DNA from: Schmidtea nova
Lineage: Eukaryota
Assembly (NCBI GenBank): GCA_044892505.1
Contig: CM097883.1
Span: 93,868,001-93,932,000 of the forward strand
DNA: 64,000 bases
Direction: 5' to 3'
The notes under the pieces: generated by a model
The model's input: only the letters and a program-made list of their open reading frames with translations
Databases searched by the model: none
Told to the model about the DNA's origin: nothing
Position numbers and translations under genes: made by a program
In this document: positions 26,803 through 55,548 of the stretch, one piece after another
Numbering within the stretch: the stretch's first letter is position 1
Layout of the letters: each line of letters starts with the position of its first letter

Positions 26803-28298
26803 TTGTTGATTTTGTAATAAAATCTCATTGATTGTAGTTTTGTCATTATTGTTCCTATTGTTGTCAATGTGCCTATTGGTTTCAATGTTCCTATTGTTGG
26901 TTGTTGTTGTTGTCGAAGCTTTTGAGTAAGCTGTATTAAAATTGTTTTTTAGAAGGCATATATTGAGTTAAATGATTATGGTGTTTATCATAAAACTCAA
27001 TATATGTCGAAGTATCAAGGGTTTGGCATACGGGGCACAGCATGTAAGTTATATTATTATATTTATAACTATAGTATTTTTCCATAATAACGTCACAGCC
27101 ATTACGGAAAATATTATTGCAAAAAGTTGGATATTTAGAACCTATAATATATATCATTAAAATATATTATTAATATCATTAATATCTTTATAACATAAAA
27201 AATAATAACAAAAGTATTTATTTTTTATATTATGAAAATATGAAAATATTTAAAAATTTGTCATAATAGTTTTCATAATAAATATAATTCATTAAAAAAT
27301 AATTCATGAGAATATTTCATAAGTATAATTCATAAGAGTTTTCATTATAAAACATTCTTCTTCATTATCTTCGTAATTTTTCATAATAAATCATTATCCT
27401 TCATTATCTTCGTAATTTTTTTTAAGAATATTTCATATGGATAATTCATTAACAATTAATTCATAAGAATATTTCATAAAATACTTAAAAATTTGTCATA
27501 AAAGTTTTCATTATAAATCAATATACTTCATAAGAATATTTCATATGGATAATTCATTAAATATTTAAAAAAAAATTTGTGATAAAAGTTTACATAAAAG
27601 TTTTCATTATAAAACATTCTTCGTAAATTTTTCATAATAATAAATCATTTTTCATTATCTTCATAATCTTCCTAATTTTCTTTTTTTAAAATTTTTTAAA
27701 TAACTTATTAAAAACTAACATTTTGACTTCTTGCACGCGAGATTGTGCACTGCATTGTTACCGGCATTAGAATAATTCTTAGCATTAGAATTCGTGGCAT
27801 TAGAATAATTCCCAACATTATAATTCGTGGCATTTAAATTAACTGAATAATAATAATAGTAATAGTTTCAAAATTATTATTAAAAGTTACCATTATTTCT
27901 AGTTCGGTTTTCGACAGCAGATATTTGTCCGGAAATATCTAAATTTTGTTGGGCCCACCAATTGGTCTAAAAAGACAAAAATATTGTACTAATTTAAACA
28001 ATAAATACAAATAATAACCACAAAAACATTCAAAAAACCTAAATTAAAAATCAAAATCAAAATAATAAATAATAATTACTAAATTTCCAGCAAAGGAAGA
28101 AAATCAAATTGACACGGGAACGAGCAGTATGGGGGTCTGAAATAAGAAAATTACAAATAAAATCAAATAAAAGTACAATTAATTGGTTAATTACTTGAAA
28201 AAATCGGGACCACCCAGCGACAAATCTGAACCGGAAATTTAAAATGGTTTATATTAAAATAAAATAACAAAATTACTTTGATGGACGGCCTGATCCTG

Positions 28299-28333
28299 AT
28301 TGGTCAATCTGACCAACTGGATCAGTATAAATA
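28299..28333 (+). promoter_or_regulatory. LTR promoter: inverted CCAAT and TATA box
   Basis: ATTGG at 28299-28303 and TATAAATA at 28326-28333; same motifs in the 3' LTR. Confidence 0.6.
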
Positions 28334-29237
28334 CCGATCCAAAAATCATACAGATAACACCTAAAATCTTAGCTACCGAACTGATCTATAACAGTCAGTT
28401 ACATCAACTTTGATACGACAAATATTGTGTAAAATTTCGGAAAACGCTACATCTTGGATTTAAAGAGTAAATTTTGTTGTATTGTATTTGAACTAATTTT
28501 ATGATATGTTTTACATGATTCCCATTTATTTCATTTCATTTAATATAATTTATTACTATTAATTGCTCTATTTTCTTATGCCATTATTTTATGATATGAT
28601 AAATATACTTCCTCAGTAGCTCACGCTGCGAGGGAGCAAGCCGTAAATGTGGGATTTCACCGTTCCACAAGATGGTGAGCAGAGTTTTATTGGTATTTTT
28701 ATTTAATTTTTAACTTTACGGTAGAGTTGTGCAGGGACAAGGACACGGGTAAAATTAGTAGACAGTGTTTAACATTAATTAATTAACATTCAATCAGACA
28801 GGAGAGAATAAACTACAGTACTAATTATCATGTCAACTAAGTCGATTTCGCATATGCACACGATTTTTTTTGAATCCACATAGCTGATCAAAATAATGTC
28901 CGGACACACCGAGACGATTTCGACATTTCAACGATAGTTTCAATTAAGATATAAATAACAACATAATCAGATCGACACTACTGATTGAATAAGTAAAACC
29001 GTAACCTGATCGCTGTAAATAGCGCAGGTGATAATATGTAAATTTTCAATAAACGTATCCCGATCGCTGTATATAGTGACGGTGTTAATTGAATAGCTTA
29101 GAAAATTATTTTTTTTGTTCCTCCTTTTCATATTTTTTTTTGTTTTGTTGATCAACGAGAGGAACACATTTCATCAGGTCTTACCAAAATTTGGGGATTA
29201 GTCACAGTAAATTTTATTAGCATTATTATTCTCTCAG

Positions 29238-29738
29238 ATGAAATCAACGATACTGGATGAATTTCTAACAACTCAACGTCATGTGGCACGGGTCGAAAAT
29301 CCTCTAATCCGGACGCAACGGAAGAAATTGAAGTCGCTTCCACAGGAACTTCTCAGAACGCTAAATGCGTTAATGTATAAATGGAGACGGGAACTAGGAA
29401 AGAAATGTCCGTTTTCGATTTGGGCCGGTGGATTAGATACCATCATATATCGTGGAGGCCCCGGATGGGAAATTCAGGACAAAAGAGACCGGGAGACGAC
29501 AGCTCCATTCATCATAGTGGTGACAGACCGCGAAGGAAATCCAACGACAGTGATCCATTGGGGATATGTCTCACCGCTCAAGTTGCTTCACTTTGGGTTG
29601 ATTCCGAACCACTTACCGAAAACGTGCCATGGACGCCCCAAACTAAACTGTTCGATGGCTCACATCCGACGAGATCCAGTCAATCACGGGTTGCATATTA
29701 CCCCCGTTCACGGCCTCAAGCGAAGCGTTTTCCACTAA
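29238..29738 (+). CDS. LTR-ORF1, 166-aa protein of unknown function
   Basis: ATG-initiated ORF in a GC-balanced island, directly after an acceptor-like TTATTCTCTCAG; identical in the 3' LTR. Confidence 0.5.
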   Translation: MKSTILDEFLTTQRHVARVENPLIRTQRKKLKSLPQELLRTLNALMYKWRRELGKKCPFSIWAGGLDTIIYRGGPGWEIQDKRDRETTAPFIIVVTDREGNPTTVIHWGYVSPLKLLHFGLIPNHLPKTCHGRPKLNCSMAHIRRDPVNHGLHITPVHGLKRSVFH

Positions 29739-29904
29739 ACATTATATTCACATTTGTATGAACTAAACTATTTCCATAAATTAAATGGTATTGATCTGTG
29801 TTTTGCCTGTTCTTAGTTAAATTTATTTCTATTTATTTAATCATATAATTTTTACACTCGACGGATAATATTAATCGTTGGTAACATAATGGCTGCATCA
29901 TAAA

Positions 29905-30513
29905 ATGGGTTTGTTATTTAGTATGACGGAAACTAGCCAACAGCGAGAATTGGATAAGGCGTGGAGAATCCGCCGAGCCTTAGAAAAGGAGCTAAATCAG
30001 GAAAAAGCATTACGAGCCAAGGCAGAAGCTCAGATTCAGTATTTACGGACCAGCTGGTTCGCCCCAGCCCGTATGAAGGAGCAGATGAGTCGGACAGAAA
30101 GGGCTCAAAAGACAGCTGACGATTATCGCACCGAATGGGAAGCAACAAAAATTGAGTTGCGCCGATGTCTCCATTCGGTGACGACTTCATTTATCGAGTC
30201 CGAATTGAAAGCACAAATCCGACCTATCACCTACCAGAAATGGGTAGGAGAACAGAAAGTGGCCTGCTCGGTCAGTACGGACACCGATGGGCTCGAGGCA
30301 ACAACAGTGCAGAGTCGGGTGGAAACCACCACTGTACTAAACCCCGTCGAAAAAACGAACAAGCGAAAACGAATCGGCTCCAAGCGCCGTCGCCAAAGAA
30401 AGCTGTTTTCTCAACAGTTGCAGACACAAGTAACCCCTATGGCAGAAATGTCGGAAGCCGAGTGGTTATCCGAGATATTCCCTCCTGAAGGAATTTTCAA
30501 AGAATTTCTGTAG
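29905..30513 (+). CDS. LTR-ORF2, 202-aa coiled-coil protein with Arg/Lys-rich NLS-like motif
   Basis: Heptad-like N-terminus and KRKRIGSKRRRQRK motif; a protein-level homologue in the solo LTR at 12022-12480 supports coding function. Confidence 0.7.
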   Translation: MGLLFSMTETSQQRELDKAWRIRRALEKELNQEKALRAKAEAQIQYLRTSWFAPARMKEQMSRTERAQKTADDYRTEWEATKIELRRCLHSVTTSFIESELKAQIRPITYQKWVGEQKVACSVSTDTDGLEATTVQSRVETTTVLNPVEKTNKRKRIGSKRRRQRKLFSQQLQTQVTPMAEMSEAEWLSEIFPPEGIFKEFL

Positions 30514-31006
30514 CAGATAGAATCATAATATGATGTCAGATTTTGGAGTTAATTAAATCTTTGCTCGTTTTTTTTTGTGTTGTTGATTCCTAGGTATTTC
30601 TTTCGATTACATAATTCATATAATTAAATTTAAATTACACGTCACACAAACGAAAGGAGTAGCGATAAAGGATTTAAATATTATCAAATTTGTAGTTTCG
30701 TTTTGCTTGTTTTTTTTTTGTTTTTATGGTAAATACATAGCCTCACACGCACGAAATAGAACAATAATTGCGTAAGTCCTTCTACGGCCGCGTGAACCCG
30801 TAAACATAAAGGGGGAGTAGTCCTAGCAATAGTGCTCACCTGCCCCTCATTGTTTAACCACCCTGCGCATCACCAACTTGGTTATCAAGGGAAATAATCA
30901 AGGGCGCTCGAGTGTAGCTTACGATTATTTATGCATGATCATGGATGGGAGATCCCTGGCAATCATTAGAATGTTTACTACACCGTCCATGAACCCAGCA
31001 TAAATT

Positions 31007-31024
31007 TGGGGGCTCAGCCGGGAT
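31007..31024 (+). other. Primer-binding site, tRNA-Pro type
   Basis: TGGGGGCTCAGCCGGGAT, 16/18 identical to the canonical MLV tRNA-Pro PBS TGGGGGCTCGTCCGGGAT; 6 nt after the LTR end. Confidence 0.85.
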
Positions 31025-31339
31025 CAACTTCGTTTTATCGAAAAAATGTGAATGCAAAATCTGCAGAGAAGTTTAAAGTGCTCGTGTCGTGTGAATAAAT
31101 TTAATAAAAACAGAAAATTTGTAATTAAATCTAAATTATGTACAAAAATAAACAACAAACACAACAGCAAATAAAAGTAAAATTATAAAAATCGAATGCA
31201 TGCATAAATAATTTGTCGGGACGATAATTTTCGGAAACACGGGGAGAGTAAATAAATACTAAAAGATGCAAAACGAAACATATTACTACTTTAAATAAAT
31301 ATTAAAAGACACAAAACGAGATATATTACTACATTAAAA

Positions 31340-31843
31340 ATGATAAAAACAACAAAGTTAAAACGATTATTTATTCAGCAAATGGAGGAAAAACTGAAAG
31401 AAATCGAAGAATTTCTCAACACAGAAAACGAAACATTAGCAACAATTGGCAAGAAAATAAACCGATTTAGAGAAATTGAATTTCAAGAACCCACAACACA
31501 GACCGAGGAAACAGATGAATTAATAAAGATAACAGAAAGAACAAGTAAAATCGACATAAAAACCCGCTACAAATGGTACCGAGCACGACTAGAGAATGCG
31601 GAGCTAAACATTAGATGCAGACAAATAGAACAACAATTAACCCCAACATACAAGCGAGGGAGGGCGCAAGGGGTAGAAGCAGCGAAAAAATACCGACAGT
31701 GCTATATATGTGAAAACAACGAGATACAAATTATGTTTTTACCTTGCGGACATTTCCGTTTTTGTAAGATCTGTGCCAACAAGCGTGACCGGTGTCCGAT
31801 GTGCAACTTTACTGTGAATGAAAAAATTATAGTTTATTTGTAA
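31340..31843 (+). CDS. Coiled-coil plus C-terminal IAP/MDM2-type C3HC4 RING protein (putative E3 ligase)
   Basis: CYICENNEIQIMFLPCGHFRFCKICANKRDRCPMCNFTVNEKIIVYL at the extreme C-terminus; no BIR repeat seen. Confidence 0.85.
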   Translation: MIKTTKLKRLFIQQMEEKLKEIEEFLNTENETLATIGKKINRFREIEFQEPTTQTEETDELIKITERTSKIDIKTRYKWYRARLENAELNIRCRQIEQQLTPTYKRGRAQGVEAAKKYRQCYICENNEIQIMFLPCGHFRFCKICANKRDRCPMCNFTVNEKIIVYL

Positions 31844-31957: not shown

Positions 31958-32567
31958 AGTGAATTATAGAGATATCCGGATAAATAGTAACAGAGGGAAT
32001 ATATACCCATAGTATAATCGTCGACGAGATTTAGAGTAGTGCGCACCAGTAGTTAAGAGAATGCGAGTAAAGCTGATTATGCAACCTTAAGTAAAGCATG
32101 CAAGGAGAATAGTAGAGATTTGAGCTGACCGGAGCAACCGGCAGAATGAGTAAAACGATTGCTAGCAGGGAATAATGAATAAAGATGATAAAATAATGAT
32201 AAACGAGTCAGAAAGACTCAGGGAATTAGAGCGCTCGAGCGACCAATAAATTGGGAAACTGTGGGAAAAGTAATTGATTTGATAAAACATAGATAATTAT
32301 TACGACATAAATAGATAATTGTGACCAGTCTATAGATAATTTAAATAGACTAAAAATAAAGGGGAATCTGGGAATGGGAAATAATGAAAACCCAGTAATA
32401 AGTAATCCCGAAAGAAAGGGAATAAAAGCGCGACGATAACAATAATGTATCGTTGAGGACCTTTGTATTTTAGATATACAAATCAATCAAATCAATCAAT
32501 CAAGCAAGAAGAATCAGAACACGATAAGCGATAGGACAAGAAAATTGAGTATACAAAAGTAATCCCC

Positions 32568-35500
32568 TTGAGAAAAGGAGCAAAGATTGTCGTAGTAAAG
32601 CCAACGGAAAAGAAAGTCGGCAGCAATATTAACAAAAAAGACAAAACTAGTACTACAACAAAAACAGTAAAAAAGCAGAAAGCCGGCAAAGATAACAACA
32701 AGAACCCACAAGGGAGTAAAGCGAGAAAAATAATAAGAGATAAATCGATTATCGAAAACGATAAATTGTCAGTAGTAAGCAACAGCTCAAGTAACAAAGA
32801 AAACCAAGCAGAACCCAAGGAGAACCAAACAAGTGAAATTGAAATCGACGAAACTAACAGCGATAATATCAAAGAAATAGAACCCGAGATAGAACAAGAA
32901 GGAGAAATCGACGAAACTAACAACGATAATATCGAAGAAGTAGAAAACGAGGTAGAACCAGAGGCAGAAATCAACGAGAGTGATAACGAAAGTATAATAT
33001 CGGATAACGAAATAATAAGAGAAACTGAAAGCGATTCAAGCTCGAGTGAAACAGAAGACGAACATAACAACGAACTAGAAACAAGAGGAAACGAAAGTAA
33101 AATAACTCAAGACAGCGGAATTGAAATGGGTGAACCAAGAGAAGAAATAAAGGATAAATTTTCAGGAGAACCGTTTAACGGAGATGCGAGTAAATTAGAA
33201 ACTTTTCTAAAGGAATTTGGCATATTTGTGGAAGTATGCAAGTGGAAAGCGGAAACAACAGTAAGCAGAATTCAGTTATATTTAAAAGATAGTGCATTGG
33301 ATTTATATTTGGAAGCGAAAAATAGTACCAATCCACCTGCAAATTGGACAGCGATAAAGGATTTTTTCCAACAAACATTTGGAATAAATAAAGTGCTAAG
33401 CGAGGCATTCATAGAATTTTCAATGAGGAAACAAAAGATGAATGAATCTAATGCGGTATACGCGAGTGAACTGAAAAAATTAGCAAAATCGGTATTCAAG
33501 GATGGAGGTCCAATAAACGAGGAGTTAATGGCAGCTATCTTCATAGGAGGACTAAGAAGACCCGACATAAGAGCGCAAGTGGGATGCCAAGGATGCAAGA
33601 CCATTGATCAAGCGTTAGAAACAGCTAACAGATTCGAATTGCATATGATAGGAAGTGAGGGCAGAATTTATTTAGCCATGGACACAGCACAAACCGAACC
33701 AGAGGTAAATCTCAACAATCACATTCCAAATTCGCAACAATTAAACCGACCACCCCCTCAACGAAGGAATGAAGGAAATAAAGTGCAGAACTTTGGAAAC
33801 CAAAACAATTACAACCCTCAAGGACAAACAAGACAATGTAAAACATGTGGAAAATTGGGACACTGGCAACAAGAATGCTATCAAAATTTGAATTGCGGAA
33901 AATGTGGAGTTAAAGGACACTCGGAGAGTAGATGTTCTACGATAATCTGTTTTAATTGTGGACGACCTGGTCACTACTCAAGAAATTGCGGACAAAAAAG
34001 TAATCAGCGAGGAAACTGGCAGAGTAATGGGAACCGACAAAACTACGGAAATCAAACAAATACCGTGAACCGACAAGATTATGGAAACCAACAAGTCAAT
34101 AATAACAATAGTCAGAACAAAACTACCACCAAAGAAATACATTTGATGCAAGAAGTTCAAAGATTGACGGAACTTATAAACAATACGACGAGAGGAAATC
34201 CGCAAACCAATCAACAGCAAATTAGCATGATGAGAAAAATAGAAAGCGAAAACGAACGATTGAATCGAGAAAGTCAAGCACGACACGCTCAGGAATGGGC
34301 AAGAATACAAAGAGAGGATGAACAAAAACAGCAAGAAAGAGAGCGACAACCTCTAAGAATTAATATGCTAAGAGCAACAAACCAAACAGACACTCGCGAG
34401 AAAGAAACCACACTGGAAATGAATTCGATAGACCCGAATCCAGCCGACAACGAAAGTCGAAAAGAGACAGTACAAAAAGATGAAGAAGTAGAAAAAGAAA
34501 TAAAAAAGGAAGGGGAAACTGAGATAAACCAGGAAGAGAGAAGGGAGATTTGGAAAAGAGGAATGATGGTAATCATGCCCAACAAATCCGTGTTTAGATT
34601 CCAGTATAACGTAAAAGAAGAAGTGGGAATATTATTCAACAAAGTAAACCAGATGGTTCCAGGAGTAACGAAACTGCCCAGAGAAGCGTTTCTACAAATA
34701 GAAGGTGCGCCAAAAGTAAGGTTGGAATTAACGGATATATGGGAAAACTTGGGAGTAGTAGAAACAAAAAGAAACGTGATGATTATTAAAGAAATAGAAC
34801 CAGAAGAAATTCCACCACCAATACGTCACGAAACCCGAATCAGGCGAATATTTGAAGGGAAAATGATAAGAAGACGTTTAAAAGAGATAGACGAGTTGGG
34901 AAAGAAAATGAAAAAAGTCGAAGTAATAGAGGACAAAAATGAACAAACACCAGAAATTAGCAAAAACAAAACAAAACCAACGGAGAATATACAAGGGGAA
35001 ACGAACCAAACAGCACATATTAATATGTTAAGAAATACCACCAGAGAGTTCTCCGATGAAGAAGAAGATAGTGATATCAGTAGCCTAGCAGGAGACATAT
35101 TAAATGAATCCGAAGACGAAAATAAAGAGAGAGAAGTAATAAAGACCTCAGAACCTATACAGATAAAAGTAGATGAAATCCAGAAATTACTAGATAACTC
35201 GCTAGAAGTAATATATAACGAAGAGTTCATGGACAAGAAACAATACCGGAAATTCATGAAAGCATTATTACAAATGAACTACAAAGAATGGTTACAAGAC
35301 CGGGAAGTAGACATGTTAAACCGATACGTAGGGAAATTAATAGAGGAACCACTCCTCAATTACACCATCTCAATAATAATAAATACATCAACATCAAGAA
35401 TCTGGATCAAAACTCCATTCACAGACGATATCTACAGATGGGTAGAGGACAGGCTAGGGAGCTCATATAAAAACAAATTCATTTTCTCGCAGAATAGACT

Positions 35501-38500
35501 CGTAAAGAAAAGAACACACCTAGTAGAAACCGGTATATGGCCAGGAGAAATAACCCTGTTATCAATATGTGATGAAAAGGAAGAAGAGAACCTACAAGAA
35601 GTTGCAAAGGAAGCAAACACGTGTTTCGAAAGGAGAATAAAACCTCGGTTAGAATACGAGAAAGAACGAGTCTTACGAAAGAATCTAAATTCCCTGATAG
35701 AACAAATCATACCACAAGTCAAAAAACATAGAAAAGAGTTAATGAGAAGCGAATACGAGAAATTGAAACGATGTATTGAGTGCATACGTGACACAAGTCA
35801 CACGAGATGGTCACAGATCTCACACGACAAATTAATCGCAAAAATGGGAAAAACAATGTTTAGACAAGGGAAAATAACGGATCTAAAAATTTCAGTAGAA
35901 TTGCCTAATGAAGACACCAAAGAAATTGAAGTGGTAGCGGATTGCACCATTAAAGAATTAATAAATGTCATTAACGAGACACTAGTGCAAAGAGAACCAG
36001 AAGACGAATGGGAAGACGACATAATCATACAATACAACGAACATGTATTATGGGATCACGATGAGAGACGACTATATAAAATCGGTATATGGGATAATCA
36101 CCAAACCATCCACGTTATCAGAATGGACGATACACCCAGAGAAACTGCTAAAGATGAGAAAAGAGAACGGGAACGACGGAAAGAAGTTGTGCGCAAATTA
36201 CAACAAATAGTAGAAATTTATCGAAATTGGCGAATTTGGCCAGAGTGGGAAAATGTATTAGAAGAACTCAATCTCAACAGACGAATACGAACACCCGTAG
36301 AAAAACAATGGAACGAGAAAGGAAAATGTTGGGAACCAAAAGAAGGGGAATATGAAGAAGAATATGAAAGAGGAATGGAAGATGACTGCGAACCAGAAAT
36401 GAGAAGGGTTTGCATGGTGACAAGGAAAGCTACGCCAATAGACCTAGATGGACCAGAAACAGCGGCTATATGGTTAGAAAAGGAAAAGCAAAAAACGGAA
36501 GAATTTGTCGAAATATTAAAAACTAATGCGCACGGTAAGAGAAAAGTAATAAAAGGTCTCGCAGATTTTTTCGTGGTTAATGGAGAAGATATAACATGCT
36601 TGCGTAAAGTGGCAAAAGCAATCGCAGAATATAAAAGAGTCAACGAATGGTGTCCGGAACAACTAGACCACGTAATTAGGAAATGGAGGAATCAAGAATT
36701 CTCGCAAGAAATTCCACAAAAAGTACATTTAAGAATAATATACCCAAACAAGGATAAGGAAGAATTTTGGGTAGGAATAGCAGAAAAAATTCGAGATATT
36801 AAAAAGAAATTGAGATACGAACCACCATTCCATTTACAACACCAAGGACGAACATTAGATAACAGTTTGGAAATTGGAATAACGCCAGCACAACTAGATC
36901 TCATGAATACCTTAACAGTGGAAGCAATAGCGGGTCAACCATTGAAACGTAAAGAAGAAAACCATAAACCACACGGAAGTATAAGTACGCCGAGCCCGAT
37001 GAAATCAGTATTAACGCCAGGAACAAGTTCAAGACGATCTGAGACAACACCCAGAGGGAATAGAGAAAGGACTCCACCACAACCATATGACGTGGACGAA
37101 ATATTAACAGACAGCGACGACATGATAGAAGAGCTAACCGAATTAACAAAGGAAAAAGACGGCAACATTTTCGAAAGGATACAAGAACTACCTACGACAA
37201 TACAAGTAACTAACACCGGAGAAACAGAAGTCGAACAAGAGATAATAATAGAAGAAGTAAACGATTTGACAGAAGATGAAATAAGAGGAGTGAATGTCGA
37301 AAATGTACAATTAACCCAGGAAATGGAAAGATGGTTAGAAGAAAGAGCTAATGAACCAAGAGATGTCACAGAAGAAACCGGACGAGCAACAAGGTTTGTG
37401 GAAACAGGTACAGGAATGGATAGACGACCTCGAGGTAGACCCAAGACAGATCCAGCAAATATAGTCATCAGAAATAAGGATGAAAAGAGACAAGATCAAT
37501 GGGAATTATGCTTAAGGAAACTAAATAAAATTGCGGAGATAAAAGAAAAAGAAACAACACCAATATGTCAAGGGGAGGAATGGATATCGAAAACAATAAT
37601 GGAAATATTGGCAATAATTGATCCAGAATTGAGAAAATACTGGCGGATAACTGAGATAAGCGAAAAGGCAAAGTCATTACACAGCGCAATTGCACCCATC
37701 TTACCAGAATTCATAAAAGAAAAGACGAAATCAAATCACTTAGACTGGCAAGGAACCACTATGTTAATAAAGAAATTGACAGAAGGAGCGGAAACGGATA
37801 ACAAATATGTAATAGCCATTGCATATACGATCTACAATCTGTTGACACTGAGTAGAGGTCGACCAAAACCCACTGCATTAGAGAGACATATAAAAAATAC
37901 CGCAAAGATTATAGCTAGAGAAATAGAACCTTACGTCATTAACAAAGGAGGATGGGAAACATTTATAAAAACTAACCAGAAGAAAACACAAGCCAAGAAT
38001 ATGAAAAAGAAATTCGAAAAAATATTGGAAGAGTTAGAAAAGGAACAAACAGGAACAGGAAACGCAAAGTCATCAATGAATCTGAGTTCTATAATAATGA
38101 TGATGTTGATATGGATGATTAGCACCGATAGCGCAACAGCATTCGAAGTGTTTGATTGCGACCAAATGAAGTTAGGAGAAAAGTATTCATTGAGAGGTAC
38201 GGAGCAATGCAAAGATGCAACTCCAGTAGAGTTGCAAAAGATTAAAAAGGAACAATGGTACCACGTGTATCAAGAAGCAGAACTCATAAAGACAATGGTG
38301 AATGAATGTAAGGTGCAGAAAACGAGATTCGCATTCTACTGCGGGAGAGGACATTATTCAGCAATTGTCATGCCAGGAACGGAAAGAGAACCAATCGTGT
38401 TACAAGGAGAAGACTGCGAAGCACTGTTTAAACATGGAGAAGTAACAACAAGAGACAAAATCAAGATAAGAGGAAAGCCAGGAATGATGCTGCAACAAAC

Positions 38501-39005
38501 CTACTATGTAGCAGGACGGATTACGGGAGGAGAAGGATATTGTCAAGGAGAAACCTACCCGATGTTCGGAACACTCGCAACCAACTTAGTGGTGATGGAT
38601 ACGTATATAGTCGAACTAAAAAGCTATGAAGCATTCTTCGAACCAACAACGGGAGAAATGAAAACGTTATCCATGTGTAAAATCGACAGGAGCATGTGTC
38701 AAACGGGAATGTCAACATTAGTATACAAACCAAAGGTGAACGAATGTCAATTACAACTGCTACAAGGAGCACAGTTCGACGAAATTCAAGGAAAAACGTT
38801 CCAGGAAGAAGACGATGACGACAAAGCTAGAGCAAAGCATCTCAAGGAAGCTTTGGAGAATAAAAGACAACTGAAACCAGATCAGCGAGAAAAAAGGATA
38901 GAGATGAGAGCCACACCAACAGTGTTGATAACCACAAATCAGGATGTGGGAATGAGATTCATAAAAGGGAAAGCAACCCTTAAGTGTAGTACAACGGTAT
39001 ACTAA
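32568..39005 (+). CDS. gag: Gag - accessory domains - N-terminal part of envelope glycoprotein polyprotein (first in-frame ATG at 33126)
   Basis: Gag capsid-like EPFNGDASKLETFLKEF...; three CX2CX4HX4C knuckles (33837-33989); ubiquitin-like segments; PRGRPK AT-hook; Bcl-2-like helical domain ending NKGGWETF; internal signal peptide (38076-38141) followed by the FEVFDC glycoprotein start. Confidence 0.9.
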   Translation: MRKGAKIVVVKPTEKKVGSNINKKDKTSTTTKTVKKQKAGKDNNKNPQGSKARKIIRDKSIIENDKLSVVSNSSSNKENQAEPKENQTSEIEIDETNSDNIKEIEPEIEQEGEIDETNNDNIEEVENEVEPEAEINESDNESIISDNEIIRETESDSSSSETEDEHNNELETRGNESKITQDSGIEMGEPREEIKDKFSGEPFNGDASKLETFLKEFGIFVEVCKWKAETTVSRIQLYLKDSALDLYLEAKNSTNPPANWTAIKDFFQQTFGINKVLSEAFIEFSMRKQKMNESNAVYASELKKLAKSVFKDGGPINEELMAAIFIGGLRRPDIRAQVGCQGCKTIDQALETANRFELHMIGSEGRIYLAMDTAQTEPEVNLNNHIPNSQQLNRPPPQRRNEGNKVQNFGNQNNYNPQGQTRQCKTCGKLGHWQQECYQNLNCGKCGVKGHSESRCSTIICFNCGRPGHYSRNCGQKSNQRGNWQSNGNRQNYGNQTNTVNRQDYGNQQVNNNNSQNKTTTKEIHLMQEVQRLTELINNTTRGNPQTNQQQISMMRKIESENERLNRESQARHAQEWARIQREDEQKQQERERQPLRINMLRATNQTDTREKETTLEMNSIDPNPADNESRKETVQKDEEVEKEIKKEGETEINQEERREIWKRGMMVIMPNKSVFRFQYNVKEEVGILFNKVNQMVPGVTKLPREAFLQIEGAPKVRLELTDIWENLGVVETKRNVMIIKEIEPEEIPPPIRHETRIRRIFEGKMIRRRLKEIDELGKKMKKVEVIEDKNEQTPEISKNKTKPTENIQGETNQTAHINMLRNTTREFSDEEEDSDISSLAGDILNESEDENKEREVIKTSEPIQIKVDEIQKLLDNSLEVIYNEEFMDKKQYRKFMKALLQMNYKEWLQDREVDMLNRYVGKLIEEPLLNYTISIIINTSTSRIWIKTPFTDDIYRWVEDRLGSSYKNKFIFSQNRLVKKRTHLVETGIWPGEITLLSICDEKEEENLQEVAKEANTCFERRIKPRLEYEKERVLRKNLNSLIEQIIPQVKKHRKELMRSEYEKLKRCIECIRDTSHTRWSQISHDKLIAKMGKTMFRQGKITDLKISVELPNEDTKEIEVVADCTIKELINVINETLVQREPEDEWEDDIIIQYNEHVLWDHDERRLYKIGIWDNHQTIHVIRMDDTPRETAKDEKRERERRKEVVRKLQQIVEIYRNWRIWPEWENVLEELNLNRRIRTPVEKQWNEKGKCWEPKEGEYEEEYERGMEDDCEPEMRRVCMVTRKATPIDLDGPETAAIWLEKEKQKTEEFVEILKTNAHGKRKVIKGLADFFVVNGEDITCLRKVAKAIAEYKRVNEWCPEQLDHVIRKWRNQEFSQEIPQKVHLRIIYPNKDKEEFWVGIAEKIRDIKKKLRYEPPFHLQHQGRTLDNSLEIGITPAQLDLMNTLTVEAIAGQPLKRKEENHKPHGSISTPSPMKSVLTPGTSSRRSETTPRGNRERTPPQPYDVDEILTDSDDMIEELTELTKEKDGNIFERIQELPTTIQVTNTGETEVEQEIIIEEVNDLTEDEIRGVNVENVQLTQEMERWLEERANEPRDVTEETGRATRFVETGTGMDRRPRGRPKTDPANIVIRNKDEKRQDQWELCLRKLNKIAEIKEKETTPICQGEEWISKTIMEILAIIDPELRKYWRITEISEKAKSLHSAIAPILPEFIKEKTKSNHLDWQGTTMLIKKLTEGAETDNKYVIAIAYTIYNLLTLSRGRPKPTALERHIKNTAKIIAREIEPYVINKGGWETFIKTNQKKTQAKNMKKKFEKILEELEKEQTGTGNAKSSMNLSSIIMMMLIWMISTDSATAFEVFDCDQMKLGEKYSLRGTEQCKDATPVELQKIKKEQWYHVYQEAELIKTMVNECKVQKTRFAFYCGRGHYSAIVMPGTEREPIVLQGEDCEALFKHGEVTTRDKIKIRGKPGMMLQQTYYVAGRITGGEGYCQGETYPMFGTLATNLVVMDTYIVELKSYEAFFEPTTGEMKTLSMCKIDRSMCQTGMSTLVYKPKVNECQLQLLQGAQFDEIQGKTFQEEDDDDKARAKHLKEALENKRQLKPDQREKRIEMRATPTVLITTNQDVGMRFIKGKATLKCSTTVY

Positions 39006-40460
39006 ACGAATTATCCAGGAATATATGTGTCAAAACAAGAAGTGCCAAATGCGAAACCCAAAATCGACACAATGGATATCAAACTATACCTGTATGTGAA
39101 TAATAAAATGGATTTCCTATTCCATAGAGGACAAGCCTCATTACAAAAAGTGTACTACGATCTGATAAACAATGATTGTATACTGAATCGAGAAATATTA
39201 AAGACAAAGTTGGCCGTAGCGATTACGAATCCAGATAGCGCGATGCCATTATTACCACTGAGAGAAGGACATTTCGGAAGAGTGGTTGGAGAAGCCATGT
39301 ATGTATACATTTGTGAAAAGACACACGCGCCGCTAGCAGCAACAACGCAATTGAAACCTGGAACCTGTACAAATGAGTTAGAAATCGATTATAAAGGAAA
39401 AGTACGATACGTTCAACCGGTGACGAGAATCATCAATCCACCAGGGTTTGAACCAAATCCATTCAACTGTAGTAATGCGTACGGACCGCTTTATCAGAAA
39501 CCAGATGGTAAATGGGTTATGTTCCCAGGAAGATCCGAAGTGATAGCACCAAGAGAATTCGAGCTAATGCAGTTGTCAAAGGATAGGCAATTCAGCGACG
39601 TAGATGTCTCAAACAACGGAATATATAGTCCAAAGGATTTAGAAGCAGCAAGGCAGAATATATTATTCCCTGCGAGAAGAGAAGCATTACTGTCGAATAT
39701 CGTAACGATAACGGGAGGAACGGATTATCGAGAAGGACCGAATTATGAACTATTGTTGTCACCAGCACATTTCAAGAAAGCCACAGAAAATATGATGAAA
39801 GCAATGTGGGGAAGATTTCTGATATTCGGACAAATGATGGCCGGAATACTGGGGGTCATATTAATAATCCAAATCGTCAGAGTGATAATAACGCAAATGC
39901 TCGCGTGTTTTGACATCTACAAGAGAGAAAAGAAAGTGAATTGGAAAATGGTAGTAGGGTTTTTACCATTCCTCGCGAAGACGATGGTGTTGCATGGACA
40001 CTCAAAGGACATACATCGAATAAAGAGATTGTTGAAGATACTCGCAAAAATGAAGGGAACAGATGAAGAAGTAGGACGAAAATTTAAAAAGATAATGAAT
40101 GACGAACAAGCAAGACAACAGCTCAAGAGAGAAAGAAAAGGTTTATGGGAGAGGATGAAAGGATATAAAACCCAAAATGATTCGAGTGACGACGATGATG
40201 ACGATGACGACTATAAGGGAGGACAAGTCTATAAGAACCAAGCACCCCAATACATTGAAAAGAATCCAGCCGACGCGTGGAAATGTTACGCACCTCCACC
40301 AACCATGTATCAAGAACCACTACAAGGAGGAAGAACGACAACAATGCAAATGATGCCAATGACAAATGTATACCCCATGATACCAGAAGATTATAAAATG
40401 AGAAGATGTAGAAGCGTAGATCCACAAGGAGATACACACACGATCGCAGTAATGTCATAA
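39006..40460 (+). CDS. env: C-terminal half of chuvirus-like (gB-type, class III) envelope glycoprotein, in frame after a single TAA
   Basis: LYVNNKMDFL...YYDLINNDCILNREIL, GRVVGEAMYVYIC, CTNELEI...VQPVTRII, TM FLIFGQMMAGILGVILII and a cytoplasmic tail; the frame is continuous from 39006. Confidence 0.85.
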   Translation, partial: TNYPGIYVSKQEVPNAKPKIDTMDIKLYLYVNNKMDFLFHRGQASLQKVYYDLINNDCILNREILKTKLAVAITNPDSAMPLLPLREGHFGRVVGEAMYVYICEKTHAPLAATTQLKPGTCTNELEIDYKGKVRYVQPVTRIINPPGFEPNPFNCSNAYGPLYQKPDGKWVMFPGRSEVIAPREFELMQLSKDRQFSDVDVSNNGIYSPKDLEAARQNILFPARREALLSNIVTITGGTDYREGPNYELLLSPAHFKKATENMMKAMWGRFLIFGQMMAGILGVILIIQIVRVIITQMLACFDIYKREKKVNWKMVVGFLPFLAKTMVLHGHSKDIHRIKRLLKILAKMKGTDEEVGRKFKKIMNDEQARQQLKRERKGLWERMKGYKTQNDSSDDDDDDDDYKGGQVYKNQAPQYIEKNPADAWKCYAPPPTMYQEPLQGGRTTTMQMMPMTNVYPMIPEDYKMRRCRSVDPQGDTHTIAVMS

Positions 40461-40517
40461 AACACAGGTCCAGTATTAACCACGACAATAGAGATTAACG
40501 GAAGAGAAATCGAAGCA

Positions 40518-43500
40518 ATGATCGACACTGGAGCAAATATTTCCGCCATCGATATCAAATGGATACCACAAGAGCAAAGACGGGAAATAGAAAGGACAAA
40601 CGTCCATGTAATTGCATGTAGCAAAGAAGTTGTAGAAGTAGCAGGAAGATGGTGGGTAAAAATACGCCATTTAAATACAGAAATCGATACGTACGTAGCA
40701 GTCATACCAGCATTAAGCGTACCTTGCATTATCGGAACAGATTTGATGCCAGCGTTATTTAAAGAAATCGTAATCGATCTCGGAACAATGAGATTAAAAG
40801 ATCGCACCGGACAAATATGCGCAATAGAAGCCAAAGTGACAAGCTCAAAGCAAATGATAATACCCGCAAGAAAGGAAAAAATATGTTACGTAAAAATAGA
40901 TCCGACAATCCAAGGCGATATGATTTTCGAACCAAGTAAGAGATTCGAGAAAAGAAAAGCGTTGCCAATGGCAAGAGGACTAGTCAACATAAACGATAAT
41001 GGGGAAATCCCAATAAACGTAGTAAATTTCGACGAGGAGGATAAAATAATCTACGAAAACGAAAGACTAGGTAAACTAACCCCAATGATGGATATCGAAA
41101 TACCAATAGAAGGGGCAGAGAAAGATAAAGAACCAACCTGGAATATTGATAGTGAATTATTAAATGAGGACCAAAAGAAGCAGCTAGAAAAACTTCTGAT
41201 AGAGTATAAGGACATATTTGCAGCATCCGATTTAGATCTAGGAACATGTGATGTCACACTACATACGATACCATTAACAGATGACACACCAATTGCATTA
41301 AGGCCGTACAAATTAGCAGAAGCACAGAAAGCAGTAGCAGAAGCAGAAGTGAAGAAAATGTTGGATGCGGAAGTAATCGAACCAAGTTGCTCACCCTGGC
41401 AATTTCCAGTGGTAATGGTAAAGAAGAAAGACGGAACACAGAGATTCTGCATAGATTATCGAAGGTTGAATACGGTAACAAAACGAGACACTTACCCATT
41501 ACCGGACATCAACGAAATGCTACTAACACTACAAGGAGCAGCATATTTTACGTCGTTAGATCTAAAAAGCGGATATTGGCAAATAAAAATGAAGGAAGAA
41601 GATAAAGAGAAAACTGCCTTTACCATCGGTAGAGACCTATATCAATTTCGAAAGATGCCATTTGGATTAACGAACGCACCAGCATCATTTCAGAGATGCA
41701 TGAATTTCGTCACCCATGGAATAAAGCAGTGTATGGTCTACATAGACGACTTATTAATTTATTCTAGCACGTTTGAACAACACATACAAGATATTCGAGA
41801 TGTATTCGTTAGACTTAGACAATGGAAGTTAAAACTCAAGCCATCCAAGTGTGATTGGGCGAAAGAAAAGGTTACATTTTTAGGACATATAGTGTCAGCA
41901 AAAGGAAAAGAACCGGATCCTAGAAATATCGACAAAGTAAAAGAATGCCCAGTACCAAAAACAATAACCCAAATACAAGAATTTCTCGGACTATGTGGAT
42001 ATTATAGAAAGTTTATAAAAGATTACGCCGGAATAGCAAAACCTATACAAGAGCTGGTAAAGAAAGATGTATCATTCATATGGGGAGACGAACAGCAAAC
42101 AGCTTTCGAGACATTAAGAGATAAACTGATAACCGCACCCATATTGGTACACCCAGACTTCAAGAAGCCATTCCTACTTGCAACGGATGCAAGCGGATAT
42201 GCAGCAGGAGCAGTATTAGGACAATACGATGATGAAGGAAAAGAACGGGTAATCGGATATTATAGCCGGACATTCAAAAAGCATGAGAAAAACTACTCAG
42301 TAACCGAGCGAGAAGCATTAGCGATTATATTAGCGATTAAACATTTTAAATATTTATTATGGGGACACATCATCTGCATAACAACAGATCACCAACCGCT
42401 TGTATGGTTAGGACAGCATAAGGAAACATCCAGTAGATTAATGCGATGGGCAATGCAGTTACAGGAGTACTCACCAGACATAAAATTTAAATCAGGAAGA
42501 GCGAATGCGAATGCAGACTGTATGTCAAGACTGACATTCCCGGAATTAACCGACCCGGATGTACAACGAATTTGCGTATTAATAGCAGAAGATTTGGATT
42601 TTAGTGAATTAAAGAAAGATCAGCAGGAAGACAAAGAATTAGGACAGATCATAGAATTCCTAACATCTCGAAACATGGAAGTATTCAAAGAGAACAAGGA
42701 ATTAAAGGAACATATAGGAAAATATCAACATCGCTACATAATAAATAAAGGATGGTTGTTAATACAAGACGGGGAAAAGAGATTGATGTGCTTACCGGAA
42801 AACAGAAGGAAAGAGATAATGATCCAATACCATGATGGGAAATTAGGAGGGCATATGTCCGAGAAAAAGACAATAAATCGTATGAGACAAAAATATTATT
42901 GGCGAACAATGGAAGAAGATATCAAAGGATGGATTAAAAATTGTCTAACTTGCGCAACCGGAAAGGATAGTGGGAAGAAATGGAAAAACCTACTACAACC
43001 AATGCCGATACCAGCAGAGCCAATGACAACTATAGCAATGGACGTAATAGGGCCATTACCAGAAAGTCTAAACGGAAATATTTATATATTGGTAATAACG
43101 GATTACCTGACAAAATTCCCGGAAGCATTTGCCATGCAAGATCAAAAAGCAAAAACCGTAGCAAAAATTTTGGTAGAAGAAATATGTTGCAGATACGGAA
43201 CTCCAAAACAAATACTCACAGACCAAGGAACTAACTTTATGAGTGAGTTATTAGACGAGGTGACAAACTATTTCAGAATAGCAAAATTGAGTACTTCACC
43301 ATATCACCCACACACGAATGGACAAACAGAGAGATTCAACGGCACATTGATTAGAATGTTATCCAACTATGTCAGCAGACACCAAACTGATTGGGACGAA
43401 TACATAAAATTATGTTTAATGGCATACCGAATGTCGATACATGCAGCAACAAAACTAAGCCCGTTTCAACTTATGTATGGAAGAGAATGCAACATGCCCA

Positions 43501-46478
43501 TAGATTTAGAGTATCAACCACCATTATCGCAATATATGGAAGACGACGACTACGTAACCAAATTCAAAGAAAGAATGCAGGAAATATGGAAAACGGCAGA
43601 ACTCAACATTAAATTTTATCAGGAAAGTTATAAGGATTTACACGACCAGAAGAAAAATGTTAAAGCAAACGACCTAAAACCAGGAGATTGGGTGATAATA
43701 GAAACTCCCGAAATAATACCAGGAACGGTTAAGAAACTCCAAAGACCTGGAAGAGGACCTTATGAAATTATATACAAAAAGGACAATAATGTCAAAGTTA
43801 AGCTAGTAAATCGACCGTTAATACGATCCATATATGTAAACACATGCAGATGTAAGAAAGTGCCTAAAACAATAACTACAACACCAGAAAATCGAATAAT
43901 AACCAGATCACAAACAGCCAGGATAAATATGCTCAGAGCAAACACAACCGAAGACGACAAAGCAGAAACAAGGCATAAGGAAATCAGAAATAAAGAAATC
44001 GTATTGAAAGCAAGAGAGGTAATGGGAAGATGGCATGCCAGAGACGAAGCAAACATATTAAAAGATATACGATGGATAATTAGCGACTACGCACAAGGAC
44101 TACCAACGAAACCAATTATTTCTGAGTTGTTAGGAAAAATCCCTGAAATACTTTTATTAGAGGATGTAGGGGGACAACCCGCCTTACACAATGCGGTAAA
44201 GTGTGGAAACATAGAAAGAGCAACGGAATTCCTAAAAATTGCAAAAGAAACCAATCAACACCTAGGTTTCGGGAATCGCGAACAAGAAACCCCACTAATG
44301 ATAGCGGCAATTTACCAAGCAAACAAGGAAATGATAGACCTTTTGATAAAGGCCCGTTTCAACTGGACAGAACGAGATAGGGAAGATAAAACAGTCTTAA
44401 ATCACGTAATATGGAGTTCACACCAACTAATGCTGAAACATATAATCGCAAACGCCACATGGGAAATAGACGAATTAATAAAAGGAGACATTATCAAAGA
44501 AGCAATCAAAATTGGTAAGTGCAACACGATCCGTAAGTTAATCAAATGGAAACGACCAGAAGATGATACATGGGTTTTAGACATAAACGAAGTATACAGC
44601 GAAGGACAAAACGCACTGTTAAGATACCTTGTGAAATTTACTTGCGATCAAAAGACATTACTAACCTTATTAGACAGAGGAAACATAAACATCACAAAGA
44701 ATGAAGAAGAACACAAATTCGATAAAGAAAAAGGGGCCTTATTCAACAAGATTAGGAAATGGTGTGCGAAACCACTTGATAAACTAATAACATACAAAGA
44801 CATAAACAATTTTAACGAGAAATACCAGACGATAGTAAATGAGTATGATGAACTAGTAAAAATCCTAAACCACCCCGAAAAATGCAAACAGGTTTTGGAG
44901 AAAAAAGAAAGAGAAAGTAACAAGAAACTCACACCACTCTTCAAAGCAGAAGCACCATACCAAGCTAGACTAGATGCGATACAAGAAAAAGCAAAAGAAT
45001 TGTTACCGGAATTCGAGAATAGTAAACATGCACTGGAAATACTCGGCGCATTAGTTGAAAAAGTACACGCATACGCAAAAGGAACATACAATAGTAACGA
45101 CATAACGACTATAAAAAAGGAGATGCCAGTAACATTTTTACTACCAAAGGACGGAATAATGCCCATACATAGAGCTTTACGAAATGGCAAAGATAGAAAA
45201 GTAATGGAAATCGCAAGAGTAATGTTAAATTGCGGAAGCAACATGAATATGATAGACGAGAAAGGAGATACACTTATGGTATTTGCAGCAAGGGCTAAAA
45301 CGAAAACAAAGGTGTTGGAAGAACTATACAAAGCAGGTGCAGGACTTACAGGAAAGACAGATAAAGATAATTCAATTTTGGATGTAGCATTACTAACACA
45401 TAATTGGGAAATGGTCAACTTCATTAAAACAATCGCAAATCAGGAAGAAATAGATTACCTAACTGATACGGTTAAGAAACCCAGTGTACTAACAATGATG
45501 CATAATGTCGAACTAACAGAAGCAATACTTACGTGGATAAATCCGAATACTAACGAACCAGCATTCAGGATTAATGAGTTTACAGAACATAACCAAAACT
45601 GGTGTATAAGAAGTGCCTTAATAACGTATAAATGGCCAGAGATATTGAAGATGTTTATGGAAAGAAAGGATATAAGAATCACAAACAATCCGAAAGAAGA
45701 GAAATACACAGGCAAATGGAAAGAATTAATGAAGACATACATCAACAACTGGATCAAGGCCAAAAAGGAAATTGTGGAATATAAATCCACCAACAAAGTA
45801 ATACCGGAGCACTTAGAAACACAAGAATTTGAGGCAAGTAATCTAACGACATTAGCATATGCAAAATTGATAGAAGAAATCAATGTCGAGGACGACATTT
45901 TCAACGAGCCAGGGGGAGATGACAATACAGATAGTGACGACGGTAACAACTCAGAAAATTCAAACGATCACGAACCACCCGATAAAGAGGAAAACGAGAA
46001 AAAAGACAAGAAACGAGTCAAAGAAGAAAAGAAAAATGAAGACGAAAAACAAAGAAATGAAGAGGGAGAACAAAGAGACCAAGGAATTAAAAATGACACC
46101 CAAAGAACAGGTTATAAATCAACCATAAAACCATTCTTCAAACCAGAATTACTATTATTAACAGTGATTTTAACGTTAATTAACCCAAGTCAAGGAATGA
46201 CATGTGAAGAAAGGGCAATAATACAAATAAAAAACGCAAAAGGAATCGAACGAGTATGTTGGTCGAAAAAGGACAAAATCACGGAACAAAATAGCCCGAT
46301 GGATTGCAGAATCTCAAAACACGAGCAAGAGATCATAGAGATCAATGACTTAGATCTAAATACCTGGTACAAAATATGCACCGTTAGAAAACAAAAGCAT
46401 CCAAGATCACACAACACAATCGCATGTGCAAAATACCAAACACCTAAAGCAGCCATGACAATACAACAGTCACCCTAA
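40518..46478 (+). CDS. pol: Pol polyprotein (PR-RT-RNase H-IN) extended by ankyrin repeats and a signal peptide/FN3-like module; frame open from 40461
   Basis: IDTGANISAI protease; CIDYRRLN, MPFGLTNAP and YIDD (41739-41750) RT; TDASG...TDHQPL RNase H; HHCC, TDQGTNF, TERFN and GPY integrase; GQPALHNAV, ETPLMIAA, GIMPIHRAL and GDTLMVFAA ankyrin motifs. Confidence 0.95.
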   Translation: MIDTGANISAIDIKWIPQEQRREIERTNVHVIACSKEVVEVAGRWWVKIRHLNTEIDTYVAVIPALSVPCIIGTDLMPALFKEIVIDLGTMRLKDRTGQICAIEAKVTSSKQMIIPARKEKICYVKIDPTIQGDMIFEPSKRFEKRKALPMARGLVNINDNGEIPINVVNFDEEDKIIYENERLGKLTPMMDIEIPIEGAEKDKEPTWNIDSELLNEDQKKQLEKLLIEYKDIFAASDLDLGTCDVTLHTIPLTDDTPIALRPYKLAEAQKAVAEAEVKKMLDAEVIEPSCSPWQFPVVMVKKKDGTQRFCIDYRRLNTVTKRDTYPLPDINEMLLTLQGAAYFTSLDLKSGYWQIKMKEEDKEKTAFTIGRDLYQFRKMPFGLTNAPASFQRCMNFVTHGIKQCMVYIDDLLIYSSTFEQHIQDIRDVFVRLRQWKLKLKPSKCDWAKEKVTFLGHIVSAKGKEPDPRNIDKVKECPVPKTITQIQEFLGLCGYYRKFIKDYAGIAKPIQELVKKDVSFIWGDEQQTAFETLRDKLITAPILVHPDFKKPFLLATDASGYAAGAVLGQYDDEGKERVIGYYSRTFKKHEKNYSVTEREALAIILAIKHFKYLLWGHIICITTDHQPLVWLGQHKETSSRLMRWAMQLQEYSPDIKFKSGRANANADCMSRLTFPELTDPDVQRICVLIAEDLDFSELKKDQQEDKELGQIIEFLTSRNMEVFKENKELKEHIGKYQHRYIINKGWLLIQDGEKRLMCLPENRRKEIMIQYHDGKLGGHMSEKKTINRMRQKYYWRTMEEDIKGWIKNCLTCATGKDSGKKWKNLLQPMPIPAEPMTTIAMDVIGPLPESLNGNIYILVITDYLTKFPEAFAMQDQKAKTVAKILVEEICCRYGTPKQILTDQGTNFMSELLDEVTNYFRIAKLSTSPYHPHTNGQTERFNGTLIRMLSNYVSRHQTDWDEYIKLCLMAYRMSIHAATKLSPFQLMYGRECNMPIDLEYQPPLSQYMEDDDYVTKFKERMQEIWKTAELNIKFYQESYKDLHDQKKNVKANDLKPGDWVIIETPEIIPGTVKKLQRPGRGPYEIIYKKDNNVKVKLVNRPLIRSIYVNTCRCKKVPKTITTTPENRIITRSQTARINMLRANTTEDDKAETRHKEIRNKEIVLKAREVMGRWHARDEANILKDIRWIISDYAQGLPTKPIISELLGKIPEILLLEDVGGQPALHNAVKCGNIERATEFLKIAKETNQHLGFGNREQETPLMIAAIYQANKEMIDLLIKARFNWTERDREDKTVLNHVIWSSHQLMLKHIIANATWEIDELIKGDIIKEAIKIGKCNTIRKLIKWKRPEDDTWVLDINEVYSEGQNALLRYLVKFTCDQKTLLTLLDRGNINITKNEEEHKFDKEKGALFNKIRKWCAKPLDKLITYKDINNFNEKYQTIVNEYDELVKILNHPEKCKQVLEKKERESNKKLTPLFKAEAPYQARLDAIQEKAKELLPEFENSKHALEILGALVEKVHAYAKGTYNSNDITTIKKEMPVTFLLPKDGIMPIHRALRNGKDRKVMEIARVMLNCGSNMNMIDEKGDTLMVFAARAKTKTKVLEELYKAGAGLTGKTDKDNSILDVALLTHNWEMVNFIKTIANQEEIDYLTDTVKKPSVLTMMHNVELTEAILTWINPNTNEPAFRINEFTEHNQNWCIRSALITYKWPEILKMFMERKDIRITNNPKEEKYTGKWKELMKTYINNWIKAKKEIVEYKSTNKVIPEHLETQEFEASNLTTLAYAKLIEEINVEDDIFNEPGGDDNTDSDDGNNSENSNDHEPPDKEENEKKDKKRVKEEKKNEDEKQRNEEGEQRDQGIKNDTQRTGYKSTIKPFFKPELLLLTVILTLINPSQGMTCEERAIIQIKNAKGIERVCWSKKDKITEQNSPMDCRISKHEQEIIEINDLDLNTWYKICTVRKQKHPRSHNTIACAKYQTPKAAMTIQQSP

Positions 46479-46628
46479 GGAGATTACATCATCGGAAAAT
46501 GTGGAAGAACAGAGACACAGGAAACAGAAAACAAAAAATCCCAGGCAGCAGATAAGCAAACAACACCAACCCTACGAATTACAATAGAGAGGCCCGAAAC
46601 AAGAGTTGCCACAAACGAAACCGAAAGA

Positions 46629-50089: not shown

Positions 50090-50181
50090 ATAAATAAAGC
50101 GGAAAACTGTAAATATGTAAAAATAAAAACAAGAAAAACCAAAAATAAATGACAGGTCGAATGTATATATTATTGTAGAAA

Positions 50182-54881: not shown

Positions 54882-55382
54882 ATGAAATCAACGATACTGG
54901 ATGAATTTCTAACAACTCAACGTCATGTGGCACGGGTCGAAAATCCTCTAATCCGGACGCAACGGAAGAAATTGAAGTCGCTTCCACAGGAACTTCTCAG
55001 AACGCTAAATGCGTTAATGTATAAATGGAGACGGGAACTAGGAAAGAAATGTCCGTTTTCGATTTGGGCCGGTGGATTAGATACCATCATATATCGTGGA
55101 GGCCCCGGATGGGAAATTCAGGACAAAAGAGACCGGGAGACGACAGCTCCATTCATCATAGTGGTGACAGACCGCGAAGGAAATCCAACGACAGTGATCC
55201 ATTGGGGATATGTCTCACCGCTCAAGTTGCTTCACTTTGGGTTGATTCCGAACCACTTACCGAAAACGTGCCATGGACGCCCCAAACTAAACTGTTCGAT
55301 GGCTCACATCCGACGAGATCCAGTCAATCACGGGTTGCATATTACCCCCGTTCACGGCCTCAAGCGAAGCGTTTTCCACTAA
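54882..55382 (+). CDS. LTR-ORF1 (3' LTR copy)
   Basis: Translation identical to 29238-29738. Confidence 0.5.
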   Translation: MKSTILDEFLTTQRHVARVENPLIRTQRKKLKSLPQELLRTLNALMYKWRRELGKKCPFSIWAGGLDTIIYRGGPGWEIQDKRDRETTAPFIIVVTDREGNPTTVIHWGYVSPLKLLHFGLIPNHLPKTCHGRPKLNCSMAHIRRDPVNHGLHITPVHGLKRSVFH

Positions 55383-55548
55383 ACATTATATTCACATTTG
55401 TATGAACTAAACTATTTCCATAAATTAAATGGTATTGATCTGTGTTTTGCCTGTTCTTAGTTAAATTTATTTCTATTTATTTAATCATATAATTTTTACA
55501 CTCGACGGATAATATTAATCGTTGGTAACATAATGGCTGCATCATAAA

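Follow-up and report, generated by a model that had tools for sequence, protein, structure and literature searches.

A predicted class III fusogen in one frame with gag and pol in a giant Burro-type Ty3/gypsy element of the planarian Schmidtea nova

A 64,000-nt stretch of the Schmidtea nova genome (GenBank assembly GCA_044892505.1, contig CM097883.1, positions 93,868,001 to 93,932,000 of the forward strand; the window, in which all coordinates below are counted) carries a 28.7-kb Ty3/gypsy-type long terminal repeat (LTR) retrotransposon at 27947-56643 on the + strand. Our subject is its env segment (38076-40457), which codes for a signal peptide, a 557-residue ectodomain, an anchor and a tail in the frame common to gag and pol, upstream of the protease. 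A first-pass annotation of the bare sequence had taken this segment for a chuvirus-like class III fusogen, captured independently by a Ty3/gypsy lineage and made as part of a Gag-Env-Pol polyprotein threaded through the membrane of the endoplasmic reticulum (ER). The features on which the argument rests are these:

27947..31000, + strand: 5' LTR, 3,054 nt, TG...CA ends, with the 4-nt target duplication ATTT upstream
32535..49607, + strand: polyprotein frame, 5,690 codons, with three in-frame TAA that interrupt it in the window copy; the first ATG is at 33126
33126..33990, + strand: Gag, a capsid-like domain and three CCHC zinc knuckles (zf-CCHC, E-value 1.9e-7)
37620..37991, + strand: likely Bcl-2-like domain with a BH2-type GGW motif at its end, adjoining env
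38076..38141, + strand: predicted internal env signal peptide (hydrophobic core 2.52)
38142..39812, + strand: env ectodomain, predicted class III (gB/chuvirus-type), 557 codons, 14 cysteines, one N-glycosylation sequon
38886..38897, + strand: REKR furin-type motif; the loop that holds it is variable and modelled with low confidence
39003..39005, + strand: in-frame TAA in the ectodomain, private to the window copy
39834..39890, + strand: predicted env transmembrane anchor (Kyte-Doolittle 2.55 over 19 residues); downstream of it lie a basic stretch and a second, weaker hydrophobic helix
39891..40457, + strand: predicted cytosolic tail and linker to the protease (ratio of non-synonymous to synonymous differences among copies, pN/pS, 0.08)
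40458..40460, + strand: in-frame TAA between env tail and protease, private to the window copy
40482..43310, + strand: Pol (Pfam), with protease 40482-40754, reverse transcriptase (RT) 41418-41894, RNase H 42156-42470 and integrase 42795-43310
46476..46478, + strand: in-frame TAA in module A (described below), private to the window copy
53592..56643, + strand: 3' LTR, 3,052 nt, with ATTT directly downstream

The paired LTRs with TG...CA ends, the target duplication and a primer site mark an LTR element. In a Pfam scan the domains of pol follow the Ty3/gypsy order protease-RT-RNase H-integrase, and gypsy-type families were matched with no BEL/Pao family among the Pfam matches listed, which supports the assignment to Ty3/gypsy that had been made at first sight. 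The two LTRs are 99.9% identical and differ by one mismatch and two single-base gaps; judged from the single mismatch, the insertion is very young.

The signal peptide and anchor were called from hydropathy. In the window, as in all 14 relatives compared (two of them near-identical), a hydrophobic core with a small-residue end stands upstream of the env start, which in the window is FEVFDC at 38142; both this start and the ECKVQKTRFAFYCG motif are present where they had been reported. The transmembrane segment previously put at about 39817-39900 peaks at 39834-39890 and is followed by a tail. Between signal and anchor lies an ectodomain, and none of its 14 cysteines varies among the relatives that cover it (14-17 for each); according to hydropathy and alignment this is the arrangement of a gB-type Env. 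The REKR motif is likewise real, but a site of the form R-x-K/R-R occurs at this loop in 17 of 18 copies and in none of 17 relatives; by alignment, the furin-like site is specific to this element family and is not a trait of the env group as a whole.

The ectodomain matches the Pfam family PF24664 (Monjiviricetes_fusion) at an E-value of 1.6e-57 with the internal stop read as X, and the halves on either side of the stop match it separately (7.6e-19 and 2.8e-45); no other Pfam family was found at E-values up to 1, and the env family was found in none of 14 control genomes. An AlphaFold2 model built from 117 sequences (predicted local distance difference test 88.7, predicted template modelling score 0.70) is beta-rich with a 48-residue central helix (residues 315-362), and a class III fold with a long central helix is a feature of gB-type Env. 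Its best matches among predicted viral structures are glycoproteins (G) of chuvirus type and related ones (Tacheng tick virus 4, E-value 1.5e-34, template modelling score (TM) 0.65); against the glycoprotein of Wenling crustacean virus 14 the TM is 0.70. The structural matches listed from the PDB are all herpesvirus gB (best E-value 8.9e-14; TM 0.21-0.44), and a profile search of PDB sequences returned gB in 43 of 44 rows (best E-value 8.8e-5). The ectodomain is thus predicted to fold as a class III fusogen of the gB/chuvirus type, in agreement with the first-pass annotation on both the profile and the structural comparison.

In a search of the genome, 40 of 896 candidates were scored. In all 39 other copies scored, env is followed by the protease, collinear at 96-97% identity, and none places the segment elsewhere. 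Positions 39003 and 40458 are open in 19 of the 19 best other copies and the stop at 46476 is not present in any of 18 anchored copies, while the terminal stop of the polyprotein is common to 16/16 anchored copies. Fourteen of the 19 are stop-free across 36.4-42.5 kb of the window register, five carry private stops at other positions, and four are open in all four stretches examined separately. When the search was made with the far end of the polyprotein (150 of 3,290 candidates scored), 30 of the 150 matches lay in a single open frame of more than 5,600 codons. Since the stops are private to the window copy and the frames of sister copies are open, the family has one giant open reading frame (ORF) and the window copy is a broken member of it; with TAA at 39003, 40458 and 46476 it cannot make the Gag-Env-Pol polyprotein as written. 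The proposal of an env between gag and pol in one frame stands at the level of the family; the two stops within the env segment of this copy had been overlooked. That so young an insertion (27947-56643) already holds three private nonsense codons, all TAA, may mean that an already broken template was copied, with help supplied in trans.

Compared pairwise, the copies give a pN/pS of 0.07 for signal plus ectodomain, 0.08 for the anchor with the tail, 0.06 for the protease and 0.02 for RT-RNase H. The env is under purifying selection comparable to that on the protease. Synonymous divergence (pS) is 0.086 in env versus 0.14-0.19 elsewhere, which may be due to the choice of copies by their likeness to env.

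We concluded that this is very probably the env of a giant Ty3/gypsy element of Burro type, lying in one frame between gag and pol, and that its product is a predicted class III fusogen, which would be threaded through the ER as part of the polyprotein. Hydropathy along the polyprotein gives no strong hydrophobic stretch upstream of the env signal and one strong anchor after the ectodomain, and no stretch as strong as the env anchor occurs within pol until 46125. The simplest reading of the topology is a cytosolic Gag with the accessory domains, a lumenal Env and a cytosolic Pol, and threading through the ER is a sound hypothesis. In unbroken copies, Gag and the accessory domains would be translated in the cytosol; translocation would begin at the internal signal peptide, which signal peptidase would then remove; folding and disulfide formation of the ectodomain would take place in the ER lumen; and transfer would end at the anchor, leaving protease, RT, RNase H, integrase and ankyrins on the cytosolic side. 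The cytosolic parts would be freed by the element's own protease, and Env would form trimers in the membrane at sites of Gag budding, giving particles that may fuse with neighbouring cells, because class III fusogens are known to behave in this way.

An alternative with the same gene order is that splicing, or a separate env message, sets the amounts of Env and Pol and that the full polyprotein is a minor product. Equal output of Gag, Env and Pol would be unusual, and the element likely splices, given that each of four downstream accessory ATGs (49733, 50182, 51672 and 52813) has an acceptor-like TAG 2-3 nt upstream, three of them in T-rich context. However, the 60 nt upstream of the env ATG are purine-rich with no pyrimidine-rich or splice-acceptor-like site, the codons directly upstream of the signal peptide are themselves selected (pN/pS 0.09), and the frame is continuous in most copies. 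We regard this alternative as unlikely.

It is less likely still that the class III fold is kept without particle entry, the protein serving as a membrane anchor for Pol or in fusion of, or interference with, host cells. The first candidate fusion loop (about ectodomain residues 68-72) has charged or small residues in the window versus hydrophobic ones in 9-11 of 16 relatives, and herpes gB depends on partner proteins (PMC13524379). Yet the whole ectodomain, all its cysteines and the central helix are strongly selected, which a mere anchor would not require.

That this element captured a chuvirus glycoprotein gene independently, as the first-pass annotation proposed, and recently is very improbable; as a recent event it is refuted. 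The closest named viral relatives are of chuvirus type both by fold and by sequence (nearest, Wufeng shrew chuvirus 2 at about 27% identity), but a search of 1.84 billion representative sequences gave 801 matches of which the closest, at 30-47% identity, are retroelement polyproteins. Among 14 long top matches that were scanned, protease or RT lies downstream of env in 10, and pol lies upstream of env in none. Two further env-before-pol families in the same genome (loci L021-L050; env about 36% identical to that of the window, open frames of around 3,400 codons) have RT downstream of env at 30/30 loci, in the same frame at 26. In an env tree of 115 ectodomains (FastTree, 42 short rows dropped, midpoint root) the window env falls within a 20-row clade with a Shimodaira-Hasegawa-like support of 100, which holds all env-before-pol rows and leaves out the named chuvirus protein, stand-alone viral glycoproteins and the BEL-type row P0072 (DUF5641 upstream of env, far from the window in the tree). 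For seven elements that have the two genes, the env tree and the RT-RNase H tree agree on both of the strongly supported splits, and an ancient acquisition is argued in PMC13524379. Being nested in this clade, the env fits inheritance together with pol from an old env-before-pol lineage and not a fresh chuvirus capture. A chuvirus endogenous viral element was also considered and rejected, as the env nests in the retroelement polyprotein clade and not among chuvirus G. One polyprotein with env, protease, RT and integrase in this order (P0009) is filed under Flavobacteriaceae, from a metagenome-assembled genome, and is probably animal DNA binned by mistake.

That the stops at 39003 and 40458 are programmed for read-through, tuning Env and Pol levels, is the least probable alternative and largely refuted: all three internal stops are TAA in a young insertion with near-identical LTRs, and one sits exactly at the env/protease border, but all three positions are open in the other copies compared, private stops occur elsewhere in five of them, and one of the stops splits the ectodomain.

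Beyond pol, the last 1,100 codons of the polyprotein form two related modules, whose repeats share an invariant C-W pair:

46125..47910, + strand: module A, four FN3-like repeats between a signal-like stretch and a transmembrane segment; contains the private stop 46476-46478
48144..49410, + strand: module B, a duplicate of A but with three FN3-like repeats before its transmembrane segment

The FN3 likeness is a lead, from Atlas fn3 clusters (0.90 and 0.76, low recognition) and weak Pfam hints; no homologue and no PDB match was found for either module. Both are under purifying selection (pN/pS 0.26 and 0.33), and in each the first repeat is followed by another short hydrophobic segment, which makes any assignment of topology tentative. 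In herpesviruses gD and gH/gL are the attachment and trigger partners of gB. The FN3-like modules are candidate partners for the fusogen here, and one polyprotein could conceivably yield a gB-type fusogen together with, from its far end, two type I membrane proteins of FN3-like repeats that act as attachment or trigger partners on the same particle, a proposal that we consider doubtful. If true, the element would count as an enveloped virus whose entry machinery, of several proteins, comes from one ER-threaded polyprotein. A literature search on such modules returned no relevant title and the Burro section of PMC6431247 is without mention of them, so that these two membrane modules, less covered in the literature, may be new.

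The remaining cargo and signals of the element are listed here:

31007..31024, + strand: primer-binding-site-like stretch, starting 6 nt after the 5' LTR, which we take to resemble the complement of the tRNA-Pro 3' end
31295..31843, + strand: accessory ORF with an IAP-type RING finger (zf-C3HC4_3, E-value 1.2e-11; pN/pS 0.21)
34560..36959, + strand: accessory region with up to four ubiquitin-like units, recognised by eye
44184..45600 (end approximate), + strand: ankyrin repeats downstream of integrase (Ank_2, E-value 3.6e-12, 3 stretches)
50179..51558, + strand: TRAF-like separate ORF with RING, zinc fingers and MATH (MATH_2, E-value 4.2e-21; pN/pS 0.12)

The capsid-like domain of Gag does not reach the cut-off (Retrotrans_gag, E-value 1.6e-4). 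From the zinc knuckles to the env signal peptide there are about 1,350 codons of accessory sequence, so the env is not immediately downstream of Gag. One of the four ubiquitin-like pieces has a weak match (Ubiquitin_4, E-value 0.063) and the other three have none in Pfam. The last part of this sequence is likely Bcl-2-like, on weak but consistent signals: a profile search gave Bax as best match (E-value 0.0027) with all 60 rows listed belonging to the Bcl-2 family, the relative P0008 has a Bcl-2 match at 9.6e-4, and GGW occurs 49-79 residues upstream of env in 6 of 17 relatives as well as in the window; the window piece on its own has no Pfam match. In comparison with the ubiquitin/SUMO-like and dUTPase-like units of Burro, the window gave this one weak Ubiquitin_4 match and no Pfam match between protease and RT. 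No BIR domain was found in the 10 ORFs scanned with Pfam, in which the RING stands alone.

Upstream of the first ATG the frame is open for up to 197 codons (32535-33125) in many copies, with no Met in 18 of 19; the stretch is basic, then acidic (pN/pS 0.41), and the frame may use a non-AUG start or a spliced leader. An I-x-M-L/R-like motif recurs at domain borders between 34137 and 43940 (INMLR three times, variants elsewhere, one directly upstream of the protease) and may be a cleavage site for the element's own protease. In the relatives P0153, P0005, P0006 and P0007, several aspartic-protease-like domains stand in tandem downstream of env. Each LTR holds an ORF of 207 codons on the + strand (29890-30513 and 55534-56157), for which no Pfam match was found, and one of 175 codons on the - strand (29211-29738 and 54855-55382). 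The flanking DNA is AT-rich. By eye we recognised a decayed second gypsy element adjoining the 3' LTR (57844-61803, - strand) and DNA-transposon-like and Polinton/DNA-polymerase-like fragments at 4116-5063, 10082-10681, 15205-17073, 24548-26122 and 62702-63490, all on the - strand.

The layout had been presented as new, on the premise that the env of such elements lies after pol; the premise is not supported, and the layout is already in print twice. PMC6431247 (2019) describes planarian Burro elements with env in frame between BCL2 and protease, calls this the first case of an env between gag and pol, and likens the Burro env to gypsy Env while noting matches to mononegavirus glycoproteins. 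The window element shares with Burro its giant size, multi-kb LTRs and high copy number (at least 150 matches), its ankyrin and MATH/TRAF cargo and, at the family level, a single giant ORF in which env lies between, and in frame with, a BCL2-like motif and the protease. Compared by description, Burro1-4/GYPSM1 of Schmidtea mediterranea and a Burro-like element of Dugesia tigrina are the closest known. The differences are an ORF of about 5,650-5,690 codons in the window family versus 4,873 and 5,140 in Burro, an env of predicted class III versus one likened to gypsy Env with its class I relatives, and a MATH/TRAF domain in a separate downstream ORF with no BIR found, whereas Burro1 carries BIR in an IAP-like cargo. 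With a RING only, the element is Burro-like and not Burro1 on these descriptions.

GAG-ENV-POL elements with gB-type env are reported from Nematoda, Bryozoa and Platyhelminthes in PMC13524379, among them nine flatworm elements, six of these from Schmidtea mediterranea (Platyhelminthes_Rhabditophora_Smed_errantivirus_1-6). That paper ties the gB-type env to Chuviridae glycoproteins and states the entry mechanism of the elements that carry it as unknown. These errantiviruses share with the window element the gene order, the chuvirus-related gB-type env, the signal peptide and anchor and the cysteine pattern, the furin site not always being kept, and in their domain I-II rows the six Smed elements agree by eye motif for motif with the window env, numbers 5 and 6 looking closest. 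The main text of PMC13524379 uses none of the words polyprotein, single ORF, fused and readthrough, and does not discuss the single-frame, membrane-threading reading. The nematode non-canonical endogenous retroviruses, for which it cites Sacco et al. (2022), are likewise metaviruses with an RNA-virus glycoprotein before pol, but belong to another host phylum and, according to the same paper, to other pol clades. Anakin and other BEL/Pao elements (PMC7642597) have a glycoprotein of the same family (PF24664) on a BEL/Pao backbone with env behind pol. The G of chuviruses and related Monjiviricetes (16-20% identity in structural alignments) and herpesvirus gB (9-13%) share profile homology and, by the model, the class III fold; chuvirus G and herpes gB are stand-alone viral genes, whereas the window env is part of a polyprotein. 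The window element thus represents a new family of a known layout. To that layout it adds a class III assignment by model and evidence from its copies that selection on env is as strong as on the protease, and, with the family high in copy number and recently active, RNA, proteomic and microscopy work in the host is practical.

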